A DNA stretch of 24,000 nt from an uncultured Thermoplasmatales archaeon (GCA_964640555.1 CAZXHI010000093.1:45-24044), one strand, 5' to 3'. Shown: positions 1 through 22,740, counted from the stretch's first letter. Notes: generated by a model not told the origin, from the letters alone. Numbers and translations: made by a program.

Positions 1-1054
1 GACTTTGAAGTGTTAGTTTCATTATCTTCATATCTTCTTCCATTTTTTTCATCTGTTCATCTTTCTCTGATAACTGTTCTTGAACCTTGCTTATATCCTT
101 GTTTTCCCGTTCAAATACTAACAAACTGTTAACCCCTTTCATATAATACTCTCCCATTTGTTTTTCACTGTATCGCCTGTATGCCTCAGATAAATAAGCA
201 TCATGCCCTGCCAGGGCCTCCGCTACAACCTCAGGGATTTCCAACTTCATAAGGCTTAAGAAGTATTTTCTTAGTACATGTATGTGCATTTCATGTCGTT
301 TCGTTGATTTATCCAACTGGTTATACCCTGCTTTTTCTAAACAGTTATTCCAAAGGTATCTTACCAAAACAGTAGAAATGGGAAAAACCCTTTTGTCGTT
401 TTTCTTTGAAAATGTTTTATTGAGACTTCTTCTATTCCATGAGTTCTGAATATATTTATCCCTAACATTCAACCATTGATTAAGGGCCTCTGCTGCCTCA
501 TGCGATATAAATACGAATCTCTTATTACCGCTTTTTGTGTAGTTGGCCCTTATGTCAATCTTAACGGGGTTACTATCCCAGTCTATATCATCTAGTTGTA
601 TTTTTGTGATCTCTCCTATTCTCATGCCACTTGATGAAAGTATAAGACCTATTGCCCTTGTCTTAATGTCACCATGCAAAAGTATCTCTTTTAACTGTTG
701 GTTAGTTGGTGCTTTGTCTATTGTTACCGCTTTGTTTCCTGTTCTAAGGTTTTTCAGATCTTCCCATATGTAACCTTTTAGTTCTACGTCATTACGCATA
801 AGGAATTTTTTTATCACACTGGCTGTAACGTTGAATGTCTTTGCAGGTGCTTTCTCCATTGTCTTAAAAAACTTTTCAACATCTTCCTGGTAGTTTCTAC
901 CATCGGTAAAATATTGATCTGGGTTTATGTTATAGTATGCAAAGTATTTTCTTAATAAGCATCCATATGTCGTTTGTGTGCTTTTGCTTTTGTATCTCAC
1001 CAAAAATTTATTGATCGTTGGTGATTCATAATAATCATATTTTCGTTCTACCAT
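1..1054 (-). CDS. Tyrosine recombinase / phage-type integrase; the C-terminal end runs off the left window edge (absent from the supplied ORF track)
   Basis: Manual translation of the minus strand from ATG (1054-1052) stays open for 351 codons to position 2. I checked every in-frame triplet and found no tta/cta/tca on the + strand. An in-frame stop lies just upstream at 1061-1063. Protein begins MVERKYDYYESPTINKFLVRYKSKSTQTTYG... Catalytic signature is present: 'SSSGMRIGEI' (box I Arg), 'HVLRKYF' (His-x-x-Arg) and 'LAGHDAYLSEAYRRY' (His plus Tyr nucleophile region). A K/E/M-rich tail follows (ENKDISKVQEQLSEKDEQMKKMEEDMKIMKLTLQS...). Confidence 0.85.
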   Translation of the reverse strand, partial: MVERKYDYYESPTINKFLVRYKSKSTQTTYGCLLRKYFAYYNINPDQYFTDGRNYQEDVEKFFKTMEKAPAKTFNVTASVIKKFLMRNDVELKGYIWEDLKNLRTGNKAVTIDKAPTNQQLKEILLHGDIKTRAIGLILSSSGMRIGEITKIQLDDIDWDSNPVKIDIRANYTKSGNKRFVFISHEAAEALNQWLNVRDKYIQNSWNRRSLNKTFSKKNDKRVFPISTVLVRYLWNNCLEKAGYNQLDKSTKRHEMHIHVLRKYFLSLMKLEIPEVVAEALAGHDAYLSEAYRRYSEKQMGEYYMKGVNSLLVFERENKDISKVQEQLSEKDEQMKKMEEDMKIMKLTLQS

Positions 1055-1227
1055 TTCAATTCACAAAAATGTAATGTACTCTGTTGTATTTAAATGTTTG
1101 TAAAAAGTAACGTGGTTATTAACCTCGTATAAAATCATTAAAAAGGTAAACATTGAATTATCATCTAAAGAAGATGCAGAGGACATTCATACTGTGATGA
1201 AAATCAAATAAAAACATCTCTTGCAAT

Positions 1228-1437
1228 CTATCCACCACTTATCATATGAATAACATCAACCCGGGAGTTATCAGGTACAACCACGTCCGGAAAATCTTTC
1301 CTAGGAATGACTTTTTGGTCAATTTTTACAACAACAAGAGGAAAAGTATATCTCATTCTCCTAAGCAATTGCTTGATGGTTTCATTTTCCACCCAGTCAA
1401 TCTTTCTACCGTTTACTTCAATACCCACTGTCTCCAC
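1228..1437 (-). CDS. thiS: ThiS/MoaD-family ubiquitin-like sulfur carrier protein (69 aa, C-terminal Gly-Gly)
   Basis: Small beta-grasp-like protein ending ...VDVIHMISGG followed by stop. Its start overlaps the 3' end of the upstream ThiF-like gene by 20 nt (1418-1437), suggesting one operon. Confidence 0.8.
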   Translation of the reverse strand: METVGIEVNGRKIDWVENETIKQLLRRMRYTFPLVVVKIDQKVIPRKDFPDVVVPDNSRVDVIHMISGG

Positions 1438-2020
1438 CTAGTATGATCTCAAGTGCCAGATCTGCCTCCCAGTTTGCCATAAGACAAACACGTGGGGCCA
1501 AAAGTACATCATCTTCACTAGACTTGGCCTGCTCATCATAGCACATATACAGTGCGCCAAAACGTTTTGTAACAATTCTATCGGAATTTCCATACCCTGC
1601 CACCCCCGACGCAGCAACAACTGGTTTATCCGGAAGTTTCAAAAGTATCTCTTCTACAAATTCTGTCTTTGTTTCAGCATTGTCTAGAGCTTCTATAACT
1701 ACATCAACGTCATGGAATGGCTGTTCCATCGATCCTTTCTCCAGTTTTTGGTTGAGAATTTCAACTTTAACTGCCGAGTTAATTCTTTTTATGTTGTCCT
1801 TTAAAGCTTCGACCTTGATTTTTCCAACTTGGTCCAAGAAATAATATTGCCTATCTAGGTTGCTTTCCTCAATTTCATCAAAATCAACCAGCACAAGTCG
1901 CCCTATTCCAGCACGAGCAAGAGCAACAGCTGCATTAGAACCGAGACCACCAGCCCCTGCAACACCAACACTTGACTTTTGAAGTTTTTCCTTTATTTTA
2001 TCAAATTTTTGTTTGTCCAT
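1418..2020 (-). CDS. thiF: Short ThiF/E1-like adenylyltransferase (200 aa)
   Basis: Rossmann nucleotide loop 'VGVAGAGGLGSNAA' and the E1/ThiF/MoeB signature 'LVDFDEIEESNLDRQ'. It lacks the C-terminal Zn/rhodanese regions of MoeB/UbaA-type enzymes. Translationally overlapped with the ThiS-like gene. Confidence 0.8.
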   Translation of the reverse strand: MDKQKFDKIKEKLQKSSVGVAGAGGLGSNAAVALARAGIGRLVLVDFDEIEESNLDRQYYFLDQVGKIKVEALKDNIKRINSAVKVEILNQKLEKGSMEQPFHDVDVVIEALDNAETKTEFVEEILLKLPDKPVVAASGVAGYGNSDRIVTKRFGALYMCYDEQAKSSEDDVLLAPRVCLMANWEADLALEIILGGDSGY

Positions 2021-2873
2021 AGAGTTGACATTTCTCCTATTTACTTATACCAGTAACCTTTAATCATTTTTACTTCTTTTTCTGGATTTAAACTCCACAT
2101 CTAGTTAATTTGTTTTTTGAGCGCTGGTCATTCCAACTAATACTAATTTAACTAAAGTTCAAAGGGATACTAAAATTTGGTGAACGCTAAGAAGGCTTTT
2201 TTCCATGGTATCTCCCTTTTCTATCGAGGGCTTTGGAAAATCCTTTATAGAAGTCTCTTTATGGTCATCACCATCACTTATGTACAAGGAGTGAGAAATG
2301 GATGAGTTTTAGCAGTTTTATCCTAAAGCAACAGGATCAAAAAAATGAAAGGTTTTGGAGACCGTCCTGCTCTGATGAAACAACAGATAGGTTGGAAACT
2401 TTTTATTCCATTTGTTTGCTTTAGAACGGAAACGGTTAAGCAGAACCTAGGAAAAAATCATAATCTATGGAGAAAAAGGGTCAAAAGTCATTGGAAATAC
2501 GTGAAAAAATCAGGGAAATATAGGAACTTAGCATGATTTCACGTAAATAAAATGGAAATAAAAAAACAGAAGATTATCCAAACCGCTCTATAGATTGTAT
2601 GCTTCAGCCAGATGAAGGAGAACCCAAAGAATACTGTGCTGTAAAAACAAAAAAGAATAGTTTTATCTCTAGTGTTCTTAAAAAATTCGATAGAAAACCA
2701 AAAGAACCTAAAATTAATTTTTCCCTCGATGACATTCTCCTTGTAAATGGCCCGCCACTGGAAAAATAATTAGATTCCATAATAAATCGTCTTTTTTAAA
2801 ATACATCACACAAAGCAAATATTTAAGAAGGTGATTTTTATATGACCCCCCATTAGAACATAGGAGCATAAAA

Positions 2874-3068
2874 ATGACAGAAGGAACAGTAAAATTCTTT
2901 AACATGAGAAAAAACTTTGGGTTTATAACCGGGGACGATGGAAAAGATTACTTCGTCCATACAAGCGGATTAGCCGAAGGAACTTCATTAAATGAAGGAG
3001 ATAAAGTCTCTTTTGAAGTTGTCGAAGGAGATAAAGGCGAAAAGGCTGAGAAAGTTAAAAAGCTTTAA
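2874..3068 (+). CDS. Cold-shock domain protein (CspA family, 64 aa)
   Basis: MTEGTVKFFNMRKNFGFITGDDGKDYFVHTSGL... carries RNP1-like 'KNFGFI' and RNP2-like 'YFVHT' motifs. SD-like 'taggag' lies about 8 nt upstream of the ATG. Confidence 0.9.
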   Translation: MTEGTVKFFNMRKNFGFITGDDGKDYFVHTSGLAEGTSLNEGDKVSFEVVEGDKGEKAEKVKKL

Positions 3069-3154
3069 TCCCTTTTTTAAATTATCCATATAAGAACATG
3101 GATTTGTTACAAATCAATCTTGAGGTTGAGTTGTAATAGTTGTTTGTCGAAAGA

Positions 3155-3185
3155 GTGGGTGCTAATGCCCACAGACGTTTTTTTT
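3155..3185 (+). terminator. Hairpin plus T8 tract, about 90 nt downstream of csp
   Basis: GTGGG (3155-3159) pairs with CCCAC (3168-3172) across an 8-nt loop, followed by agacg and TTTTTTTT (3178-3185). A T6 run also lies directly after the csp stop (about 3072-3078). Oligo-T tracts are archaeal termination signals. Confidence 0.4.
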
Positions 3186-3339
3186 ATCCATCAAAACCCC
3201 CATTTAGAGTATAAACAATAGTGGCGATAAGTTATATCCCCATTGAAGATATTCGCCAATAGTTAAAGTGTGAACATTGAACCATTAGCAGGTATTCCTA
3301 ACGAGAATATACTATTTATTAACATGATTAGTTTATGAA

Positions 3340-3627
3340 ATGGAAAATGGAAGATTATTTATTATCTATTGTAACCAAAGTAGTCGTCTCAGTAGCTGGA
3401 AACTAGATGAAAGTACAATCAACTTTGACATAAATCTAAGGGATTTTCAATTAGATGAACAGCGAAATTTATCAAAAATCGACAATCTCCGAATTGTTGC
3501 TAAATTACCCACATCAAACAAAGGCATCAAAAAACAACCCAATATTATGCGTTTACTCGTTGCTGGTAGTATTGAGTTCATCAAATATTTAGGGACAAAA
3601 AAAACGATTCTCCATCTTCACAAGTAA
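3340..3627 (+). CDS. Hypothetical protein (95 aa), no recognisable motif
   Basis: Only the ORF-track entry supports it. It lies in a gene-poor, AT-rich stretch and I see no clear SD. Confidence 0.3.
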   Translation: MENGRLFIIYCNQSSRLSSWKLDESTINFDINLRDFQLDEQRNLSKIDNLRIVAKLPTSNKGIKKQPNIMRLLVAGSIEFIKYLGTKKTILHLHK

Positions 3628-3810
3628 AACAAGATTTCAAACTATTTTTATTACATATGAAAATATGCCCCCGTTGGGAATTACATTGTTCACCAGGAGC
3701 AAATTTTAGGAGAATTTTGTAAAATAGATAGAGTCTTGTTTTATATTAATTCTGTTCAGATCGTGGAATGAATATCAATTTGAAAAAATACATATGTTAA
3801 CAGTATTTAC

Positions 3811-3945
3811 TTAATGTTTGGCTAATGCACTAAGTGTTTTTTTATGTCCATTTGCTATTTTAACGATTTCTCGAAATTCTTCATCAGCAATTTTTTTCCT
3901 AGTTTCTTCTGAAATGTTATCTTTCAAATTTTTTGATTTTGCCAT
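3811..3945 (-). CDS. Candidate 44-aa ORF overlapping the 3' end of doc (speculative antitoxin candidate)
   Basis: Manual translation gives ATG (3945-3943) ... TAA (3813-3811): MAKSKNLKDNISEETRKKIADEEFREIVKIANGHKKTLSALAKH. It is in the +1 frame relative to doc, overlaps doc by 29 nt, and is too short for the ORF track to report. No homology recognised. Confidence 0.2.
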   Translation of the reverse strand: MAKSKNLKDNISEETRKKIADEEFREIVKIANGHKKTLSALAKH

Positions 3946-4315
3946 TCATAATCCACTCTTTTATTTCATTTTTAGAATAATAATTTTCTCTTATACCAAT
4001 CATTACCTTAACATTATTTATCGTATCAGGTATATTAAATTTTCCTCCATTATTGAGGACAAACTTTTTTGTTGAGAGAAAAGCAGTTCGTTTATTTCCA
4101 CTTTCAAAAGCATGTATGCGTGTTAATTCAATGAGTAATCGTGCCGCTTTATCATAAATGTCCCCTGGATCTATTTTTGTTTTATCTATAGTTCTTTGTA
4201 TATATGAAACACTAATCGTTTTTGCTTGATCACTTTTACTTTTTCTAAACATTTCAATTGCAATAGTGTTATAATACTGAATCTCATCAATAGTAGGATA
4301 CACAATTACAACCAT
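3917..4315 (-). CDS. doc: Doc (death-on-curing) / Fic-family toxin
   Basis: Fic-fold active-site motif in its Doc variant: 'IHAFESGNKRTAFL' (H-x-F-x-[DE]-x-N-K-R, with Lys where AMPylating Fic proteins have Gly). Size (132 aa) is typical for Doc. Confidence 0.8.
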   Translation of the reverse strand: MVVIVYPTIDEIQYYNTIAIEMFRKSKSDQAKTISVSYIQRTIDKTKIDPGDIYDKAARLLIELTRIHAFESGNKRTAFLSTKKFVLNNGGKFNIPDTINNVKVMIGIRENYYSKNEIKEWIMNGKIKKFER

Positions 4316-4452
4316 GAAAGAGTTGAAAGAGAGGGAAGCGTATAATCTTTACGTTTATTTATAAAAAATATCTAAATTTTCTACATTATGCTAATCAAAC
4401 TATTGTTGGATTGAAATCAAATATCCCTCTCCTATGCCCATACTAAAGTTAG

Positions 4453-4527
4453 TGCTCCCGACGGGATTCGAACCCGTGTAGCCAGCTCGAAAGGCTGGAA
4501 TGATTGACCGGACTACACCACGGGAGC
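4453..4527 (-). tRNA. tRNA-Glu (anticodon UUC), 75 nt, no encoded CCA
   Basis: Reverse complement: GCTCCCGTGGTGTAGTCCGGTCAATCATTCCAGCCTTTCGAGCTGGCTACACGGGTTCGAATCCCGTCGGGAGCA. Folds with a 7-bp acceptor stem (GCTCCCG/CGGGAGC), anticodon stem CCAGC/GCTGG, loop CTTTCGA (U33, anticodon TTC), T arm ACGGG-TTCGAAT-CCCGT and discriminator A. Confidence 0.93.
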
Positions 4528-4535
4528 AAATTGAG

Positions 4536-4607
4536 CAGCCCTGTCCAGATTCGAACTGGAGTCGCTGGCTCCAAAGGCCAGCATGTTAACCACTACACCA
4601 CAGGGCC
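4536..4607 (-). tRNA. tRNA-Gln (anticodon UUG), 72 nt, no encoded CCA
   Basis: Reverse complement: GGCCCTGTGGTGTAGTGGTTAACATGCTGGCCTTTGGAGCCAGCGACTCCAGTTCGAATCTGGACAGGGCTG. Folds with acceptor GGCCCTG/CAGGGCT (G1-U72 wobble), D stem GTGT/ACAT, anticodon stem CTGGC/GCCAG, loop CTTTGGA (anticodon TTG) and T arm TCCAG-TTCGAAT-CTGGA. Only 8 nt separate it from tRNA-Glu, so the two are probably co-transcribed. Confidence 0.9.
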
Positions 4608-16250: not shown

Positions 16251-17120
16251 TCACTTTGTTTTCTCCTCTACACAGTTTCTAAATGTTTTAATCATGTTTA
16301 TCAGAGAACATGCCACTGTTACTGGTCCAACTCCTCCAGGCACAGGTGTAATTTTCCCAGCTTTTTCCTTCACAGAATCAAAATCTACATCTCCGCATAT
16401 GCCATCCTTTGTATTCACTATTCCAACGTCTATTACAAAAGCGTTTTTCTTTACATACTCACTTGTTATTATCCTTGGTATCCCTGTGGCTGTTACAAGA
16501 ACATCTGCCCTAGATGCATATTGTTTTGTATTCTTTGTGAAAACATGACAAACGGAAACCGTGGCATTCCTGTTAAGAAATAGAGCAGAAAGTGGCTTTC
16601 CCACGACATTACTATGGTTAATAATAACTATGTCCTTTCCTTTGAGATCCATGTTTTCGTGTTCCAAAATAGTAAGCACCGATAGCGGGGTACATGGCAC
16701 AATATATTCATCACCGATTAGAGTTCTACCCATATTATATGGAGTAAATCCCTCCACGTCCTTTTTGGGATCTATTGCATTCATCAGTATATCTGAAGAA
16801 ATATGACCTGGTATAGGAAACTGTATCAGAATTCCATGAACGCTTTTGTCTTCATTTAATTCAGATATGGAACGTAAAATTTCATTTTCAGAAACATTCT
16901 GTGGAAACTCTAGATGATTTGACACTATCCCTGCCTTTTTACAGGCATTATCCCTTAGCCTCAAATAAAGAGCTGATGTTTGATCCTCACCAATTTTAAT
17001 TGTGGTTATATTCGGCGTAGTTTTGTATCTTAATTTTAATTGTTCTACTTCCTCAGCAGTTTTTCCGTGTAGGTTACCTGCTATTTCCCTTCCATCAATA
17101 ATTTTTGCAGTCATTTTCAA
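16251..17120 (-). CDS. folD: Bifunctional methylenetetrahydrofolate dehydrogenase / methenyl-THF cyclohydrolase
   Basis: 'AKIIDGREIA', 'YLRLRDNACKKAGI', 'GILIQFPIP', 'DPKKDVEGFTPYN', 'PCTPLSV', 'VVGKPL' and 'ITPVPGGVGPVT'. The track start (17120) is TTG. The ATG at 17114-17112 (MTAKIIDG...) is the more likely start. Confidence 0.93.
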   Translation of the reverse strand: MKMTAKIIDGREIAGNLHGKTAEEVEQLKLRYKTTPNITTIKIGEDQTSALYLRLRDNACKKAGIVSNHLEFPQNVSENEILRSISELNEDKSVHGILIQFPIPGHISSDILMNAIDPKKDVEGFTPYNMGRTLIGDEYIVPCTPLSVLTILEHENMDLKGKDIVIINHSNVVGKPLSALFLNRNATVSVCHVFTKNTKQYASRADVLVTATGIPRIITSEYVKKNAFVIDVGIVNTKDGICGDVDFDSVKEKAGKITPVPGGVGPVTVACSLINMIKTFRNCVEEKTK

Positions 17121-17145
17121 TTCAAAAAGTAAAATTTAGGTGGGG

Positions 17146-17153
17146 TTATAAAT
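17146..17153 (-). promoter_or_regulatory. TATA-box-like element upstream of folD
   Basis: The minus strand reads ATTTATAA, 32-39 nt upstream of the folD ATG (17114). It directly abuts the core of att-like site A. Confidence 0.3.
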
Positions 17154-17187
17154 CCTCTGGTTATAGTTTCAGCTTGGTTACAAAATC
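17154..17187. repeat. att-like site A: core CCTCTGGTT plus right arm Z
   Basis: cctctggttatagtttcagcttggttacaaaatc matches 18299-18332 at 32 of 34 positions. Lies between the heliorhodopsin stop and the folD start. Confidence 0.85.
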
Positions 17188-17236
17188 AGGAAACTTTGTA
17201 ATACAATGTCTTGTATACATATGAAGGTATTCTTTT

Positions 17237-18166
17237 TTAAACTGGCCTTAGTGTTCCTGCAAATACCTGCCATGCTAAAGCTGATTTTGCAATTAAACTT
17301 AGGACAATATACATTCTTTCCCCATATAGATAATCTTTCCATTTGCCAATTTTTTTGTATTGGAGAAACATGTTTATTGCAAATAAGTTAAAGAATATTG
17401 CAATAGTAATAAATATTACAATTACAAAATCAGGAACTGATTCTGCAGTTATTAGTGGAATGAAGATAACAATCCATGGAATAAATCCTGAAATACAGCC
17501 AATAGAATAGGATGTCCAATTTGTTTTTTCGGTTGTTTGATTATGTAACTCCATCATTAATCCCATTAGATTCATTACAGCGGTTAATGTGAATAATGCG
17601 ATGATTGTACCAATATCGTAAATTGTAACAAGCATTGAAATAATAACTATCATTAGAGATGCACTTAATGAATATTCAATCCATCTTGCCGGATTCATAT
17701 GTTTTTTAAGTTTTTTTACATACCACTTATAAAGAACAGTTGCAATAAGAAAATGTGCTGTTGCAGACATAAATATAAAAAGTGCTACTAATGGCCCAAT
17801 ACGAACATCGATAAATGATACTGCAACTGGGATAATTGTTTGAGTTGTTGTGTTATATTCCGGTGTTGAATAAGTTAACGGTAGAGCAAAATCCTTACTG
17901 AGAATTAGTATTAAACAACCTTGGATAAAATGAAAAAAACCCATGATTGCATTGAACCTTCTTAATCTGGTAAAACATTCTTCTCCAATTTTAGTAAAAC
18001 AATCTACTGTTTTTGAATTTGTTTCTTCTGATGGAAAAGTAAATTTTCCATATGTATTACAATTTGGACAACTTAATTCAATTGTTTGATTAAGTCCCCC
18101 TTTTACATTAAATTGATGTTTACAATTTGGACAACTTATTTCCTTTTCAATAAATTTAGCTTTCAT
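17237..18166 (-). CDS. Heliorhodopsin with N-terminal zinc-ribbon domain (309 aa)
   Basis: Matches heliorhodopsin family blocks as I recall them from the prototype 48C12: 'RRFNAIMGFFHFIQ' (TM1 His79), 'SATAHFLI' (His138), 'NPARWIEYSLSASLMIVII' (counterion Glu164) and 'QYKKIGKWKDYLYGERMYIVLSLIAKSALAWQVFAGTLRPV' (Schiff-base Lys294, codon 17287-17285). Residues 1-66 are an extension carrying C12-P-N-C15 ... C33-P-N-C36 (MJ0042-like CPxC-x17-CPxC zinc ribbon) plus C56 and C64. There is no internal Met before residue 75, which lies inside TM1. Confidence 0.93.
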   Translation of the reverse strand: MKAKFIEKEISCPNCKHQFNVKGGLNQTIELSCPNCNTYGKFTFPSEETNSKTVDCFTKIGEECFTRLRRFNAIMGFFHFIQGCLILILSKDFALPLTYSTPEYNTTTQTIIPVAVSFIDVRIGPLVALFIFMSATAHFLIATVLYKWYVKKLKKHMNPARWIEYSLSASLMIVIISMLVTIYDIGTIIALFTLTAVMNLMGLMMELHNQTTEKTNWTSYSIGCISGFIPWIVIFIPLITAESVPDFVIVIFITIAIFFNLFAINMFLQYKKIGKWKDYLYGERMYIVLSLIAKSALAWQVFAGTLRPV

Positions 18167-18277
18167 ATTTTCTATCCAAAATTTATGAATTCAGTTATGA
18201 TAAAAGAATGTATCGATTTTTACCTAATATCAAATCTCCATCAAAATCAGCAAGTAATAAAGTTACTCTTTTTATTT

Positions 18278-18332
18278 TATACACAATAAATAATTAAACC
18301 TCTGGTTATATCTTCAGCTTGGTTACAAAATC
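18278..18332. repeat. att-like site B: left arm X plus core plus right arm Z (the complete site)
   Basis: tatacacaataaataattaaaCCTCTGGTTatatcttcagcttggttacaaaatc. The left 30 nt match 19537-19566 at 29/30. The right 34 nt match 17154-17187 at 32/34. Confidence 0.85.
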
Positions 18333-18340
18333 TGTTTAAT

Positions 18341-18373
18341 TTTTTGAAATATAAACAATAAATAATTAAATCT
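18341..18373. repeat. Extra copy of arm X without a core
   Basis: tttttgaaatataaacaataaataattaaatct matches 19528-19560 (tttttaaaatataaacaataaataattaaacct) at 31/33. Lies 8 nt from the end of site B. Confidence 0.8.
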
Positions 18374-18553
18374 ATTTATCTTCCCCTTCTTTAAGATTAA
18401 TAATGACTAGCTTCACTTACCTCCTTTTATGTTCAGCTTCTAAATTTCTAAATAGTAGGACAGACCATATTTTTTCCACCTTTTAGAACACTGTAAAAAG
18501 GGTTAAGTTAATAGCATTGAAAAAGCCTATTCTGGGTATCCAACAAAATTTTT

Positions 18554-19429
18554 TTATGGAAGTGGCATTTCCACAATTTTTACATGCTGTGCATAACCAA
18601 GATAATAACAAGATAATCCGTTTTGGATAACTGTCCCACGAAAATCAGTTATACCAACATACCAGTATCCCCATTCTAACATGTCTCCAAAACCTTTCTT
18701 CCGAATGTTTCCATACATTGAGGTGTCATTCCAACTAACCTCTCCGTTTTGTCCAGATGACCACAACCATCCCCTTGAAGGATTATAATATGTATCATCC
18801 CCTCCGAATGTTTCAGAATATCCTATACCTATGGTGGCATTTATATCAAATGGAAATAAATTTTCAATTTCATCTAGATCAAAATCAAACAACCATTTGA
18901 AATAAGGTGATAAAAACCCTAGACTATTAATCAGAAATAATTCAAAGTTAGTAAACCTACCCCAAACACGAGTGTTTGAAATTTCTCCACAAATTTCGCA
19001 ATCCCAGTTTTCATTTTCACCGTAGGTAATAACATCAGAATGAGATATTTTTTCTAATAATCCATTTCCCCCTTGATTTGGGTTTATCCTAAATGGTATA
19101 TCAAATGTTTCTTTGGTAAGTAACCATGAAATTAAATTAAGTTTATTTAGCTCTATTATGGTATCAATAAATAAAAATTCTTCTTTTTCCATATTTGTTT
19201 TCTCATCCAATTTGTTATACAATTTATCAAAAAGCGCATCGAGTCTTTCAACATCTTCTGTAGACAATCTCACATTATATTTTTTTATTCCATTGACATT
19301 ACATATTTGAACTGTTGTAATCACATGATCCTGTTTTGATATTGGTGGATGTATATCATAAGCTAACGTTTGAGTAATAAATAACCCAATAACGATAATC
19401 ACGATTCCTGGAGTTAACATATTCTTCAT
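18554..19429 (-). CDS. Hypothetical secreted or membrane-anchored protein (291 aa), W/Y/G-rich C-terminal domain
   Basis: N-terminal hydrophobic signal/anchor 'GIVIIVIGLFITQTLA'. The rest has no motif I recognise (…YYNPSRGWLWSSGQNGEVSWNDTSMYGN…EWGYWYVGITDFRG…). Confidence 0.6.
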   Translation of the reverse strand: MKNMLTPGIVIIVIGLFITQTLAYDIHPPISKQDHVITTVQICNVNGIKKYNVRLSTEDVERLDALFDKLYNKLDEKTNMEKEEFLFIDTIIELNKLNLISWLLTKETFDIPFRINPNQGGNGLLEKISHSDVITYGENENWDCEICGEISNTRVWGRFTNFELFLINSLGFLSPYFKWLFDFDLDEIENLFPFDINATIGIGYSETFGGDDTYYNPSRGWLWSSGQNGEVSWNDTSMYGNIRKKGFGDMLEWGYWYVGITDFRGTVIQNGLSCYYLGYAQHVKIVEMPLP

Positions 19430-19527
19430 TTACGCATCCATTGTATTATAAGGAACGTAATAAAATATAAATGTTATGCAAAAGTAAATCAGTCAGAATT
19501 ATTACTTACATCTTATTCATTTTATGG

Positions 19528-19566
19528 TTTTTAAAATATAAACAATAAATAATTAAACCTCTGGTT
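19528..19566. repeat. att-like site C: left arm X plus core, overlapping the methyltransferase stop codon
   Basis: tttttaaaatataaacaataaataattaaaCCTCTGGTT. The minus strand reads ...AAA CCA GAG GTT TAA (K P E V stop) of the 19553-20383 gene. Confidence 0.85.
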
Positions 19567-20383
19567 TTCTGCCTATCGCATAGAATTGTGGAAAGAAGTT
19601 GAGTTGTACGCCCTCATCAAGTGATTTTAGATATTCATATTCCCATTTGTCGATTTCTTCTTCGGAAAGCCCTGCACCTTTCAGTGCTTTTACATAGAAA
19701 TCCCTTGCGTGTAGGTAATATGATTTATCCTCTTCACAACTCCATATACGATTGTTTCCTATGCCTACTTTAGTTTCAAGTCCTGCCCTTACAAATAGCA
19801 AACGAAGTTTTCTACCGATGTGTGGATCCCCTCCCCGCTCTTTGATTGCTTTACCAGCAAATACTACATCAATCTTTGGGTTTTCAGGATAGTGTAATTT
19901 GCCACCGTAATCAGGTTCAAGAGATGCAAGTACTCTACCACCAGGTTTTGTAACACGCGTCATTTCATTGACTACCTTCTGTGGATTGTCTACCCACATA
20001 AAAAAAAGATTGCAGGTGACAATATCAAAAGTATTATCTCTAAATGGAATGGTTTCCGCACTACCAACGTACAGATCCACGTTTTTATAGTCTTTGAGAA
20101 TGTTTTTTGCTACTTCTATCATATCGCCCGACCCATCTATTCCAATCACTTTACCCTTCGTAAGGTGAGCAATATCCTTTGTAACGGTTCCTGATCCGCA
20201 GCCCACATCTAAAACATTTTCTGCATCCTTAAGCCCCACTTCTAGATACAGAGGTATCCTTTCTTCTGCTGTTTCCAATGCCTGCAGTTCCAATTTTTTA
20301 ATGAAATCATTTAGATCCTCTTTTGATCTTTTATGAAATTCAATATTCTTCTTTTTCTTCATTTTAATGACAAAAACAGACAT
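19553..20383 (-). CDS. Class I SAM-dependent methyltransferase
   Basis: Motif I 'VLDVGCGSGTVT', then 'VIGIDGS', 'FDIVTCNLFFMWV' and 'MTRVTKPGGRV'. An alternative start is the ATG at 20362 (MKKKKN...). Confidence 0.85.
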   Translation of the reverse strand: MSVFVIKMKKKKNIEFHKRSKEDLNDFIKKLELQALETAEERIPLYLEVGLKDAENVLDVGCGSGTVTKDIAHLTKGKVIGIDGSGDMIEVAKNILKDYKNVDLYVGSAETIPFRDNTFDIVTCNLFFMWVDNPQKVVNEMTRVTKPGGRVLASLEPDYGGKLHYPENPKIDVVFAGKAIKERGGDPHIGRKLRLLFVRAGLETKVGIGNNRIWSCEEDKSYYLHARDFYVKALKGAGLSEEEIDKWEYEYLKSLDEGVQLNFFPQFYAIGRKPEV

Positions 20384-20458: not shown

Positions 20459-21757
20459 ATGAAAGAAGTTATCCTTCAGGTTGCATTAGACCTTCTAAAT
20501 GAACATAGAGCACTTTCTATAGCCCAAGATTCAGTAAAGGCCGACAAAGACTGTTGGCTAGAAGCAGGGACCCCCCTGATCAAAAGCGAGGGTATGGACA
20601 TAATAAGAAAACTCAAGCAAACATTTCCAGATAAAACAATCGTTGCTGATATGAAAATCATGGACACTGGTGCGCTTGAGGTTGAGATGGCGACTAAAGC
20701 TGGAGCAGATGTCGTATGTGTGCTCGCTGCATCTGACGATAGCACAATAAAAGATGCATTGAAATCTGCAAGGAAATATGGCTCAAGAATCATGGTTGAT
20801 CTAATCGGCGTTAAAGACAAGGTAACTCGTGCAAAAGAACTAGAAAAACTAGGTGCCGATTACCTATGTATACATATTGGTATAGATGAACAAATGATTG
20901 GAAAAAAACCTATTGATGTTCTTACATCTATCGTTAAAAAAACCGAAATACCAGTCGCCGTTGCTGGCGGACTAAACAGCGAGACTGTTGCAGAGATTGC
21001 CAAGGCGGGTGCAAGTATAATTATTGTAGGTGGTGCTATCACCAAGGCCAAAGATGTAATCAAGGCAACAAAACAAATAAAAAAAGCAATAATCGAAAAA
21101 AAACCTATTGAGTCTACTCTTTTTAATAAATACGATAAAGCTCACCTGAAAGAAGCATTTTCAATGGTTTCTACGCCAAATATCTCCGATGCGATGCATA
21201 GACAGGGCGCAATGCAAGGCATTAAACCTGTTGTTTCTGGCTTCCATATGGTTGGCAGGGCACTCACTGTTCGTACGATTGATGGAGATTGGGCAAAACC
21301 TATAGAAGCAATAGATGAAACAAATAGGGGCGAGGTTGTAGTAGTGGACGTAAATGGCGGAAAAACAGCAATCTGGGGAGAACTCGCAACGTGGAGTGCA
21401 AAGCTTAAGGGACTTGCTGGCGTGGTGATTGATGGAACAGTTAGGGATCTTGACGATATCGTGAAAATGGATTTCCCAATTTTTTGTAGACATATTGCCC
21501 CAAACGCTGGTGAACCAAAAGGTTTTGGAGAGATCGGTGCTGAAATAAAATGTGGTGGTCAAACCGTAAGAACCGGTGATTGGATTATCGGTGATGATTC
21601 AGGAGTCGTTGTGGTACCGCAGGAAATATCCCAGGAAATTGCCAACCGTTCATTAGGTGTTAAAGAGACTGAGAACCGCATCAGAGAAGAAATAAAAAGC
21701 GGCGGTTCACTTGGAAGTATCCTTAAATTAAAGAAATGGGAGAAGAAAGTGGGATGA
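20459..21757 (+). CDS. Fusion protein: 3-hexulose-6-phosphate synthase (OMPdecase/HUMPS fold) plus RraA-like domain
   Basis: The N-terminal half shows HPS features: 'LQVALDLL', 'IVADMKIMDTG', 'GADVVCV', 'MVDLIGV' and 'VAVAGGLNSET...IIIVGGAITKA'. The C-terminal half shows RraA / HMG-aldolase features: 'NISDAMHRQGAM', 'GRALTVRT', 'GEVVVVDVNGG...AIWGELATWSAKLKGLAGVVIDGTVRDLDD' and 'GDDSGVVVVP'. Confidence 0.85.
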   Translation: MKEVILQVALDLLNEHRALSIAQDSVKADKDCWLEAGTPLIKSEGMDIIRKLKQTFPDKTIVADMKIMDTGALEVEMATKAGADVVCVLAASDDSTIKDALKSARKYGSRIMVDLIGVKDKVTRAKELEKLGADYLCIHIGIDEQMIGKKPIDVLTSIVKKTEIPVAVAGGLNSETVAEIAKAGASIIIVGGAITKAKDVIKATKQIKKAIIEKKPIESTLFNKYDKAHLKEAFSMVSTPNISDAMHRQGAMQGIKPVVSGFHMVGRALTVRTIDGDWAKPIEAIDETNRGEVVVVDVNGGKTAIWGELATWSAKLKGLAGVVIDGTVRDLDDIVKMDFPIFCRHIAPNAGEPKGFGEIGAEIKCGGQTVRTGDWIIGDDSGVVVVPQEISQEIANRSLGVKETENRIREEIKSGGSLGSILKLKKWEKKVG

Positions 21758-22740
21758 GTAAAGTTATATTTTTTACGGTTTTTAAAAAATTTCATGATGC
21801 GTTAGCCCATTTTAATATCGAGAGTTTTGCCGGAAAAAAAGTTCCTGTCAAACTTCACATGGGTGAACTCAAAAACAAGTATTTTCCCAAACCTGAATTT
21901 GTAAAACACGTGATTGACGAGTTGAAACTGGCACATGTAGAACCATATCTCTTTGATACAACTGTTGCTTATCCTGGACTGAGGCATTCTAAAACTGGCT
22001 ATCGCAAACTAGTTGAAATACATGGTTTTACCGCAAAAAAAGTCGGTTGTGACGTAGTGATAGATGATAAAGGCGTTCCAATTACTGTTGAAAACAGAGA
22101 GTATAAGGTTGCTGAGCATCTCGTCGAGTCGACCCATATCTTTGCTTTGTCTCATGTAAAGGGCCATGTTGCAACAGGAATGGGTGGAGCCATTAAGAAT
22201 TTTGGTATGGGTGGTGTAACAAAAGAAACGAAAATGCGGATGCATCACGGCAGCAGACCCATTTATCAAAAAGACGCTTGCACATATTGTGGTGCCTGTG
22301 CCGAAGTATGCCCGTTTAATGCTTTAAAAGTAAAGGAGAATAGTTGGAAACAAAATATGAAATCTTGTTTTGGATGTGGAGTATGCGTTGATGCATGCAA
22401 GAGTGGTGCCTTAACATATAAGGATGCTGATTTTCAATATGTCCTTGCGTGTGCAGCAAAGGCATGTGTTCAAGATAAAAATGTGATCTACCTAAATGAA
22501 ATAAAACGGATTGCAAGAAGCTGTGATTGTGACCCATTTGCAGGACCAGTTATATGTCCAGATATTGGTTATCTTGTATCTGATGATCCCGTGGCAATAG
22601 ACAAGGCATCTTTAGATCTTGTCAATGATGTTAAAAAGGATGTTTTTGAAAAAGAAAATAATATTAGTCCATTAAAACAAATAAAATATGGTGAGGAGAT
22701 AGGACTAGGATCTCCCTCATACCAACTTATTGAAATTTAG
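21754..22740 (+). CDS. DUF362-domain protein with 2x[4Fe-4S] ferredoxin insert
   Basis: 'VPVKLHMGE', 'FDTTVAY' and 'SHVKGH...GMGGAIKNFGMG' are DUF362-like. Two cluster motifs are present: 'CTYCGACAEVCP' and 'CFGCGVCVDAC'. I prefer the ATG at 21754, which overlaps the upstream stop as ATGA (translational coupling). The track ORF begins at 21736. Confidence 0.8.
   Translation: MSKVIFFTVFKKFHDALAHFNIESFAGKKVPVKLHMGELKNKYFPKPEFVKHVIDELKLAHVEPYLFDTTVAYPGLRHSKTGYRKLVEIHGFTAKKVGCDVVIDDKGVPITVENREYKVAEHLVESTHIFALSHVKGHVATGMGGAIKNFGMGGVTKETKMRMHHGSRPIYQKDACTYCGACAEVCPFNALKVKENSWKQNMKSCFGCGVCVDACKSGALTYKDADFQYVLACAAKACVQDKNVIYLNEIKRIARSCDCDPFAGPVICPDIGYLVSDDPVAIDKASLDLVNDVKKDVFEKENNISPLKQIKYGEEIGLGSPSYQLIEI

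Follow-up and report, generated by a model that had tools for sequence, protein, structure and literature searches.

The stretch of DNA analyzed here, which we call the window, comprises 24,000 nt from an uncultured Thermoplasmatales archaeon (GCA_964640555.1 CAZXHI010000093.1:45-24044). Two small insertions, each carrying one gene and each bounded by copies of the same 9-bp core sequence, lie in it between a gene for a class I S-adenosylmethionine-dependent methyltransferase (MT; 19553..20383; Pfam Methyltransf_11/25/31) and folD (16251..17114 from its ATG start, the listed open reading frame [ORF] extending to 17120 from a TTG; Pfam THF_DHG_CYH and THF_DHG_CYH_C). The first insertion, the SEC cassette (18308..19557, minus strand; 1259 bp counting one core copy), contains SEC (18554..19429, minus strand), a gene for an orphan protein of 291 amino acids with a hydrophobic N-terminus. 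The second, the heliorhodopsin (HeR) cassette (17163..18298, minus strand; 1145 bp counting one core copy), contains a gene for a Znf-HeR, a heliorhodopsin with an N-terminal CxxC...CxxC zinc ribbon (17237..18166, minus strand; Pfam PF18761, E = 5.6e-96). MT, SEC, HeR, and folD are all on the minus strand. If we write O for the core, M for the MT side, and W for the folD side, the order on the gene strand is M-O-X'c-SEC-X'4-8 nt-Z'-O-X'b-HeR-Z'-O-W-folD, where X' and Z' denote the arms described below.

The core and its arms

An earlier note on this DNA had proposed that three sites with a common 9-bp core mark two modules integrated in tandem, and the three sites were confirmed. There are exactly three copies of the core (CCTCTGGTT on the plus strand, AACCAGAGG on the gene strand) in the window, located on the plus strand at 17154, 18299, and 19558. 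This is far above chance, with 0.11 copies expected and three copies reached in 1 of 100 shuffles. The cores are 1145 and 1259 bp apart. Read on the gene strand, copy C (19558..19566, minus) is the junction of MT and the first cassette, copy B (18299..18307, minus) is the junction of the two cassettes, and copy A (17154..17162, minus) is the junction of the last cassette and the folD promoter. Directly before the core, each cassette ends in a conserved Z arm. The Z' of cassette 1 (18308..18332, minus; GATTTTGTAACCAAGCTGAAGATAT) and that of cassette 2 (17163..17187, minus; GATTTTGTAACCAAGCTGAAACTAT) match at 23 of 25 positions, exactly as had been claimed (chance expectation, 0.00). After the core comes the X arm, for which 18278-18298 and 19537-19557 match at 20 of 21 positions (chance expectation, 0.01). 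The similarity reaches about 30 nt (18269-18298, 18341-18370, and 19528-19557), so that we distinguish X'c (19528..19557, minus; TTTAATTATTTATTGTTTATATTTTAAAAA), the AT-rich and TATA-box-like 30-nt 5' arm of the SEC cassette, and X'b (18269..18298, minus; TTTAATTATTTATTGTGTATAAAATAAAAA), the 30-nt 5' arm of the HeR cassette. The claim that the X arm is limited to sites C and B did not stand. An extra copy that lacks the core, X'4 (18341..18370, minus), lies 8 nt upstream, on the gene strand, of the Z' of site B, and its positions 18350-18370 match the arm of site C at 21 of 21 positions.

The last codons of MT, which encode K-P-E, form the core of the insertion site. The core is therefore held constant by coding constraint. 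Occupied alleles end in KPEV or KPED, and the ancestral end is KPEDL. On the other side, the W arm (17115..17153, minus) is the folD promoter region, with a TATA-like ATTTATAA box (17146-17153) directly after the core, 32 to 39 nt upstream of the folD ATG. As read from the sequence, both core plus X' and core plus W resemble an archaeal promoter with a B recognition element (BRE) and a TATA box. Outside the site, neither Z' nor X' was found in the window, in 837 kb of DNA from related loci, or in viral contigs, and thus the arms are not a promoter or terminator motif common to many genes. An old local duplication or a common regulatory motif was rejected, as the arms are unique to the locus in the window and the 837 kb and as empty and variable alleles exist. 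The site region has no Rfam match up to E = 1 and no tRNA nearby. A tRNA-derived att site was also rejected, since there is no tRNA near the site and no tRNA-derived repeat near the integrase gene of the window.

Further upstream of X'4, at 18371-18383 and 18420-18440, the Z'-core end has two look-alikes, GGAAGATAAATAGA and AAGCTGAACATAAAAGGAGG. Their similarity to it is weak (p about 0.02); decayed junctions or an "empty" cassette of 72 bp could account for them.

Alleles of the locus in related genomes

Contigs with the HeR-only and the SEC-plus-HeR alleles were obtained by exact-protein look-ups and come from independent JGI, ENA, and Logan assemblies. Sister genomes have the empty allele, so that the expectation of variants with 0, 1, or 2 modules was correct. 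The empty locus, too, looks just as it had been reconstructed. It reads ...ggcagaaAACCAGAGGatttataaccccacc...ATG, MT ends in GRKPEDL, and its stop codon falls within the TATA box of folD, at a distance of 31 nt from the folD ATG. One empty contig (L028), which encodes P0017, reads ...gcgataggcagaaAACCAGAGGatttataaccccacctaaattttactttttgaattgaaaATG, the reconstructed M-O-W junction. P0017 stands for an MT homologue cluster of 80 member sequences that is 96% identical and ends in GRKPEDL; more distant MT homologues end in KPE(D/A)L. The GTDB representative JAUWOO01 (Thermoplasmatota archaeon CSMAG_2452; L030) has the same empty arrangement, and both empty-site sister genomes are about 96% identical in DNA. 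Among 80 Thermoplasmatota species representatives, MT lies within 100 nt of folD in 72, and 50 of these 72 have a TATA-like box before the folD start (median distance, 37 nt). The exact 9-nt core is present in 3 of the 80, all three of them empty. Distant relatives that have an insertion between MT and folD (L080, L095, and L101/L102) were found, where this could be resolved, to contain rearrangements or unrelated DNA without Z' or core. The cassettes are therefore confined to a narrow clade with an MT identity of at least 94%.

Seven contigs (L001, L003, L004, L006, and L013 to L015) have the order MT-O-X'b-HeR without SEC, with the MT stop 127 nt upstream of the HeR start. The four that are long enough (L001, L003, L004, and L006) continue through Z'-O into folD. 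SEC followed by HeR is found in the window and in three contigs, two of which start in MT (L007 and L010) and one inside SEC (L002). Two more contigs (L012 and L016) contain only the MT-O-X'c junction. Contigs L009 and L011 stop exactly at ...AACCAGAGGtttaattatttattgt, the last base common to both alleles, as would be expected for a branch in the assembly graph. The two alleles co-occur in populations with a flank identity of at least 99.8%, and MT is 100% identical between L001 and L007; the difference between HeR-only and SEC-plus-HeR is therefore recent.

The same core was found with different cargo. Contigs L018 and L112 carry a single cassette of 1448 bp, whose gene product (PAD) is agmatine deiminase-like, of the PAD_porph type, and has a hydrophobic segment at its N-terminus. 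Contigs L110 and L021 have an extra cassette of 1601 bp, UNK21, ahead of the PAD cassette, with a 43-amino-acid ORF and a 273-amino-acid orphan ORF on the opposite strand. Both the PAD and the UNK21 cassettes use the same core plus Z'. L110 and L112 are exactly one cassette (UNK21) apart, and the junctions share only 9 to 10 nt, the core, which is too short for ordinary homologous recombination. It is the cassette next to MT that varies in either two-cassette array, in agreement with insertion at the first copy of the core, although there are only two such cases. A scan of JGI metagenomes for Z'-core gave five contigs, every one of them this locus, including the PAD-bearing lineage, which is about 92% identical in the flanks.

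All four cassettes (1145 to 1601 bp) share a 34-bp end, consisting of Z' (25 nt) and the core. Alignment of the four 3' ends gives an invariant block, (C)A/T-GATTTTGTAACCAAGCTGAA-(AC/GA)-TATAACCAGAGG, with little conserved further upstream; an AT-rich stretch resembling X'4 is also present upstream of Z' in the PAD cassette. Past the core, the 5' ends of the cassettes diverge. X'c resembles X'b over 30 nt, the PAD 5' arm has 13 nt in common with them, and the UNK21 5' arm has none; after the core there may be at most a preference for WTT. As the 5' ends diverge and the 3' ends are conserved, the functional site is Z'-core at the cassette 3' end. The earlier note had proposed a shared attP of the form Z'-O-X'. 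The Z'-core part holds for all four cassettes and the X' part for some of them only, so the shared attP is Z'-core rather than Z'-core-X'.

Two other features of these contigs may be mentioned here. Near both of its ends UNK21 has short iteron-like repeats (L110 1700-1740 and 265-300, minus strand; GAATTTAGGTGCAA and ATTTTAGGTACA, each twice), which recall a small replicon or a regulator-binding array. In contig L029, where MT ends in KPEV, a gene for an IS66-family transposase (896-2039, opposite strand) starts 10 nt after the core and has apparently been inserted into an X' arm.

These alleles bear on the possibility that no machinery is involved, that the junction is simply a flexible spot whose contents are exchanged through homologous recombination, both within the conserved flanks (MT and folD) and between short repeats, and that the repeats themselves arose by duplication of regulatory DNA. 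Between sites C and B, core and X' are identical over 25 nt, which could support deletion of SEC, the promoter-like appearance of core plus X' and core plus W agrees with a regulatory origin, and the alleles differ by linked single-nucleotide polymorphisms (SNPs). However, homologous recombination does not explain why four unrelated inserts have the same 34-bp end and all start exactly after the same 9 bp, nor does it explain the precise presence or absence of UNK21 with only 9 to 10 nt of identity. Moreover, the empty site has the core but neither Z' nor X', and neither arm lies upstream of other genes in the window or the 837 kb. We consider this explanation very improbable.

Proposed site-specific insertion in trans and its alternatives

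We favor, with moderate confidence, the reading that the MT-folD junction is a dedicated insertion site, where cassettes without a recombinase are inserted and excised site specifically by an enzyme acting in trans. The earlier reading of tandem site-specific integration is supported in its testable parts. The boundaries of the cassettes, the conserved 34-bp site, and the series of alleles are observed, whereas the circular form, the enzyme type, and the order in which events took place are inferred as follows. A recombinase supplied in trans, most likely of the tyrosine type and acting on double-stranded DNA, would join a circular cassette (Z'-core-5' arm) to the chromosomal core, and the insert would then be flanked by the core on both sides. 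MT would remain unchanged save for its last one or two residues (KPEDL to KPEV or KPED). As the core is regenerated next to W, folD would retain its core-plus-TATA promoter. Later cassettes would enter at the MT-proximal copy of the core and so build up a tandem array, and the reverse reaction would remove a cassette precisely. The cassettes, which are 1.1 to 1.6 kb long, usually with one gene and a variable AT-rich 5' arm, would carry their own promoters, and for at least the HeR cargo a related archaeon would have supplied the copy, from an ordinary locus on its chromosome. The circle junction expected for SEC would read ...GCTGAAGATAT-AACCAGAGG-TTTAATTATTTATTGTTTATATTTT, with the SEC Z' joined to X'c and a diagnostic T where X'b has G, and the one expected for HeR ...GCTGAAACTAT-AACCAGAGG-TTTAATTATTTATTGTGTATAAAA.

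Several observations weigh against such a mechanism. No circular junction, in which the core would link the Z' of a cassette to the 5' arm of that cassette, was seen. There was no second chromosomal Z' site either in the metagenome scan, whose five contigs are all this locus, or in the genome scan, which gave none; scans of one genome, one metagenome, and two viral collections for exact matches, which miss diverged sites, gave no Z'-core outside the locus. No recombinase is tied to the site, and the sole one in the window may belong to another element. The site is without the inverted-repeat symmetry that is usual for simple tyrosine-recombinase core sites. A linked SNP (A versus C) in the HeR 5' region separates the HeR-only from the SEC-plus-HeR alleles, which makes them distinct lineages and not the result of on/off switching within one clone. 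Taken alone, the presence or absence of SEC next to HeR could result from homologous recombination, for which core plus X' offers 25 identical bases. Finally, the composition of the cargo is only weakly foreign. Its GC content (0.30 to 0.32) is below that of the neighbors (about 0.37) and within the range of native genes. In the comparison of codon usage that had been suggested, the distance of the cargo was unexceptional and in the native range.

None of the four cassettes contains a recombinase gene, as had been stated for the two modules of the window. The only recombinase in the window is a tyrosine recombinase (1..1056, minus strand; Pfam Phage_integrase, E = 5e-15), whose C-terminus is cut by the window edge. 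It lies about 16 kb from the site, could not be linked to the cassettes, and is a candidate only; it has no relatives in viral contigs.

In two respects the structure of the site was compared with that of known sites. Folding of both strands of six junction sequences (65 to 131 nt) gave z values of -1.26 to +0.35 versus shuffles and no common structure. An attC hairpin was rejected, as folding was no better than that of shuffled sequence, and this agrees with the earlier statement that the sites are not attC. The best 11-nt inverted arms (spacer of 4 to 10) matched at 6 to 8 of 11 positions and were equalled or beaten in 287 to 499 of 500 shuffles. Dif-like 11-6-11 symmetry was rejected, since the inverted arms are at chance level. 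One paper on dif sites (PMC2958812) has no Thermoplasmatota dif sequence in its text.

In its organization the locus resembles an integron, and integrons have been reported in archaeal metagenome-assembled genomes (MAGs) (Ghaly et al. 2022, PMC9668308). As in integrons, there is one fixed platform with tandem, small, usually single-gene cassettes that lack a recombinase, two per array here, with a conserved recombination site at each cassette 3' end and few shared bases at the 5' end. The platform-proximal cassette is variable, and strains differ in their cassettes. Unlike in integrons, there is no attC hairpin and no adjacent intI, the site apparently acts as double-stranded DNA around an identity core of 9 bp, the 3' end of MT serves as the platform, and the cassettes come with their own promoter regions. 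No intI lies beside the array, which is flanked by MT and folD; the distant recombinase, 16 kb away, was not examined for the IntI-specific extra domain. These differences also bear on the possibility of a canonical integron array without an integrase (CALIN, a cluster of attC sites lacking integron-integrases). Such an array would account for tandem single-gene cassettes that are mostly co-oriented, for the conserved 3' site, and for insertion at the first position, in a domain of life from which integrons are known. However, the junctions share no structure, there is no R''/R' pair with attC spacing, the cassettes bring their own upstream regions, and the platform is the end of a housekeeping gene and not an attI beside intI. 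A canonical array is, in our opinion, hardly credible.

The main rival is transposition, in which the cassettes would be nonautonomous transposons with one preferred target, in the manner of Tn7, whose target is the glmS end. The transposase would be encoded elsewhere, and the 9-bp core would be a target-site duplication, for which this length is typical. The 9-bp direct repeat is present at every junction, where it flanks each insert exactly, and would be expected of a target duplication and of a recombination core alike. No enzyme is encoded in the elements, their single conserved end (Z') resembles a transposon end, the alleles without a cassette could be uninserted ancestors, and transposition does occur at this region, as the IS66 transposase in L029 has entered it. 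On the other hand, the cassettes have no terminal inverted repeats, as X' is unrelated to the reverse complement of Z' and only the 3' end is conserved. Their left ends are wholly different, the same 9 bp was used by all of at least five independent insertions, Z' is found nowhere else in the scanned collections, and the window contains no Tn7-like or other transposase genes. The locus does share with Tn7-like transposons a fixed position at the end of a conserved gene that is kept active and a short direct duplication. In contrast, Tn7 has terminal inverted repeats with multiple transposase-binding sites, a 5-bp duplication, and its own transposition genes, none of which is present here. We regard transposition as unlikely, though still worth serious consideration.

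At the 3' end of fda in Streptococcus thermophilus, cis-mobilizable elements (CIMEs) and accretion of integrative and conjugative or mobilizable elements (ICEs and IMEs) are known. Our locus has the hybrid junctions M-O-X, Z'-O-X, and Z'-O-W next to the empty M-O-W that characterize CIMEs and, again like them, no recombination genes. CIMEs, ICE/IME accretion, and helper-dependent islands (reviewed in PMC5704250) also involve direct-repeat att sites and the 3' end of a protein gene, as well as tandem arrangement with hybrid att sites and presumed mobilization in trans. CIMEs are several kilobases or larger and derive from ICEs or IMEs with a known helper, whereas here single-gene units of 1.1 to 1.6 kb occur in an archaeal host with no known helper. 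Repeated integration at one attB is also a feature of the tycheposons of Prochlorococcus (bioRxiv 10.1101/2020.12.28.424599) and the ssrA islands of Dehalococcoides (PMC3146451), with older elements pushed inward, partial-target repeats between the cargo, and heterogeneous populations. Those elements, however, have their own tyrosine recombinase, target tRNA or tmRNA genes, and are much larger. The dif modules of Acinetobacter plasmids and other Xer-dependent elements are likewise modules of one or two genes without a recombinase, bounded by short sites, and a host recombinase is thought to shuffle them (PMC6449649, PMC13141974). The pdif sites, in contrast, are 28-bp 11-6-11 inverted repeats in alternating orientation, whereas our sites are direct repeats without symmetry at a single chromosomal locus.

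The comparison with CIMEs raises the possibility that the cassettes are decayed larger integrative elements, such as viruses, plasmids, or integrase islands, of which only the cargo and the att sites are left. There is bacterial precedent for tandem accretion at one attB, for direct-repeat att sites, and for integrase-less elements (PMC5704250), as well as for arrays in the tycheposons (bioRxiv 10.1101/2020.12.28.424599), and the iteron-like repeats in UNK21, the X'4 copy, and the possible decayed Z'-core remnants suggest past events. On the other side, the four cassettes are compact and their ORFs intact, no cassette contains an integrase fragment or a backbone remnant, the HeR insert reproduces a chromosomal locus cleanly between a short X' and Z', and the viral, metagenome, and genome scans gave no autonomous element with Z'-core. 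Decay is thus rather improbable.

To return to insertion in trans, it is possible, and we say so tentatively, that this locus is a new archaeal gene-capture platform, an analogue of the integron, in which a double-stranded Z'-core site of about 34 bp is used by a trans-acting recombinase and the cassettes come from ordinary chromosomal genes placed between a short X' and Z'. Should the recombinase prove distinct, the locus would have a substantial chance of being a gene-capture platform of a new type. In open-access papers and preprints, we found no description of such cassettes in Thermoplasmatota or of a heliorhodopsin carried in this way. Empty, one-cassette, and two-cassette alleles together with swapped cargo form a rare natural series in an uncultured archaeal lineage. 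The host group, sediment Thermoplasmatota that include the MAGs SG8-52-3 and SM1-50, is one in which the mechanisms of gene mobility are poorly known. As arrays are apparently possible without attC hairpins or IntI, standard integron finders would miss such systems. Both the 34-bp site and the 9-bp core are defined well enough to be searched for in reads and to serve in recombination assays of candidate enzymes.

Cargo genes and the surroundings of the site

The HeR domain (PF18761) occupies residues 68 to 306 of the cassette-encoded protein. Residues 12 to 37 contain CPNC...CPNC, in agreement with the pattern CxxC-(17)-CxxC, and give weak zinc-ribbon matches. Znf-HeRs of Thermoplasmatales have already been described (bioRxiv 10.1101/2021.02.01.429150). 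They are widespread in Thermoplasmatota, with hundreds of homologues at 70 to 89% identity. The nearest HeR outside a cassette (P0135) is 89% identical and lies at a different locus, beside genes for a short-chain dehydrogenase and a pyrimidine-dimer glycosylase. A stretch of cassette 2 (17216..18266, minus strand) and the differently placed HeR locus of a relative share 88% DNA identity. The identity starts 33 nt after the core, just past X'b, ends 21 nt past the stop codon, and stops 28 nt short of Z'. These limits indicate that the cassette consists of the gene and about 100 nt of its own upstream region, placed between X' and Z'. By sequence identity, the HeR cargo is a copy of a gene located elsewhere in relatives. 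The donor locus of one cassette can thus be identified, and the question of where cassettes come from becomes testable. As a small mobile unit, a heliorhodopsin gene, which is a light-sensor gene, also offers a concrete route for the patchy distribution of rhodopsins.

Two repeats in and around HeR were observed. A 23-nt direct repeat (18057-18079 and 18120-18142; 96% identical) encodes both CPNC knuckles of the zinc ribbon. A 24-nt motif, CTCCATCAWAATCAGCAAGTAATA, is present in the HeR 5' region (18236-18259, plus strand), both in the cassette and at the native locus (L113, about 415-440), and two further copies in direct orientation lie on either side of the PAD gene in its cassette (L018 6294-6317 and 7539-7562). 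Each copy is followed by a different short hairpin.

For SEC, there is no family in Pfam, PHROGs, PADLOC, or NCBIfam, and its homologues form two clusters only among 5.8 billion proteins. UNK21 and PAD have no PHROGs or PADLOC family, and UNK21 and HeR have no viral relatives. The only other copy of SEC is at an unrelated locus (L116), which is 96% identical in DNA to a stretch of cassette 1 (18544..19433, minus strand). Here the identity is limited to the ORF, extending beyond it by only 4 nt at the start and 10 nt at the stop, and the context, beside a tRNA fragment and a small integrase, is unrelated to that in the window. In L116 (1-2320) the SEC copy comes after a gene for a beta-helix-type secreted protein, with a duplicated segment that encodes NxWNxNYWNR on both sides. 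L116 also has a tRNA 3' fragment (about 1505-1560, minus strand; not called by ARAGORN) and a tyrosine recombinase of 178 amino acids. A link between this integrase and that of the window was rejected, as they are only 24% identical over the catalytic domain.

A viral or plasmid origin of the cassettes was rejected, since phage and plasmid collections gave no relevant match to the cassette region. The sole match is an unrelated heR of a Lactococcus plasmid, NZ_CP141705.1 (Lactococcus petauri), a mobilizable plasmid of 10.5 kb on which positions 4175-4593 are annotated as a heliorhodopsin gene. This is an independent case of heR on a mobile element.

At the far end of the window, the stretch 1-4607 comprises the recombinase gene, a short ThiF-like ORF, a Fic/DOC gene (3917-4315), and the genes for tRNA-Glu and tRNA-Gln (4452-4607). 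It may be a separate element integrated at a tRNA gene; an att repeat for it was not found inside the window. On the other side of the site, upstream of MT, a fused HPS (OMPdecase-family)/RraA-like gene overlaps the start of a DUF362/4Fe-4S gene (20459-22740), and the MT-HPS-DUF362-MFS block is kept in every allele.

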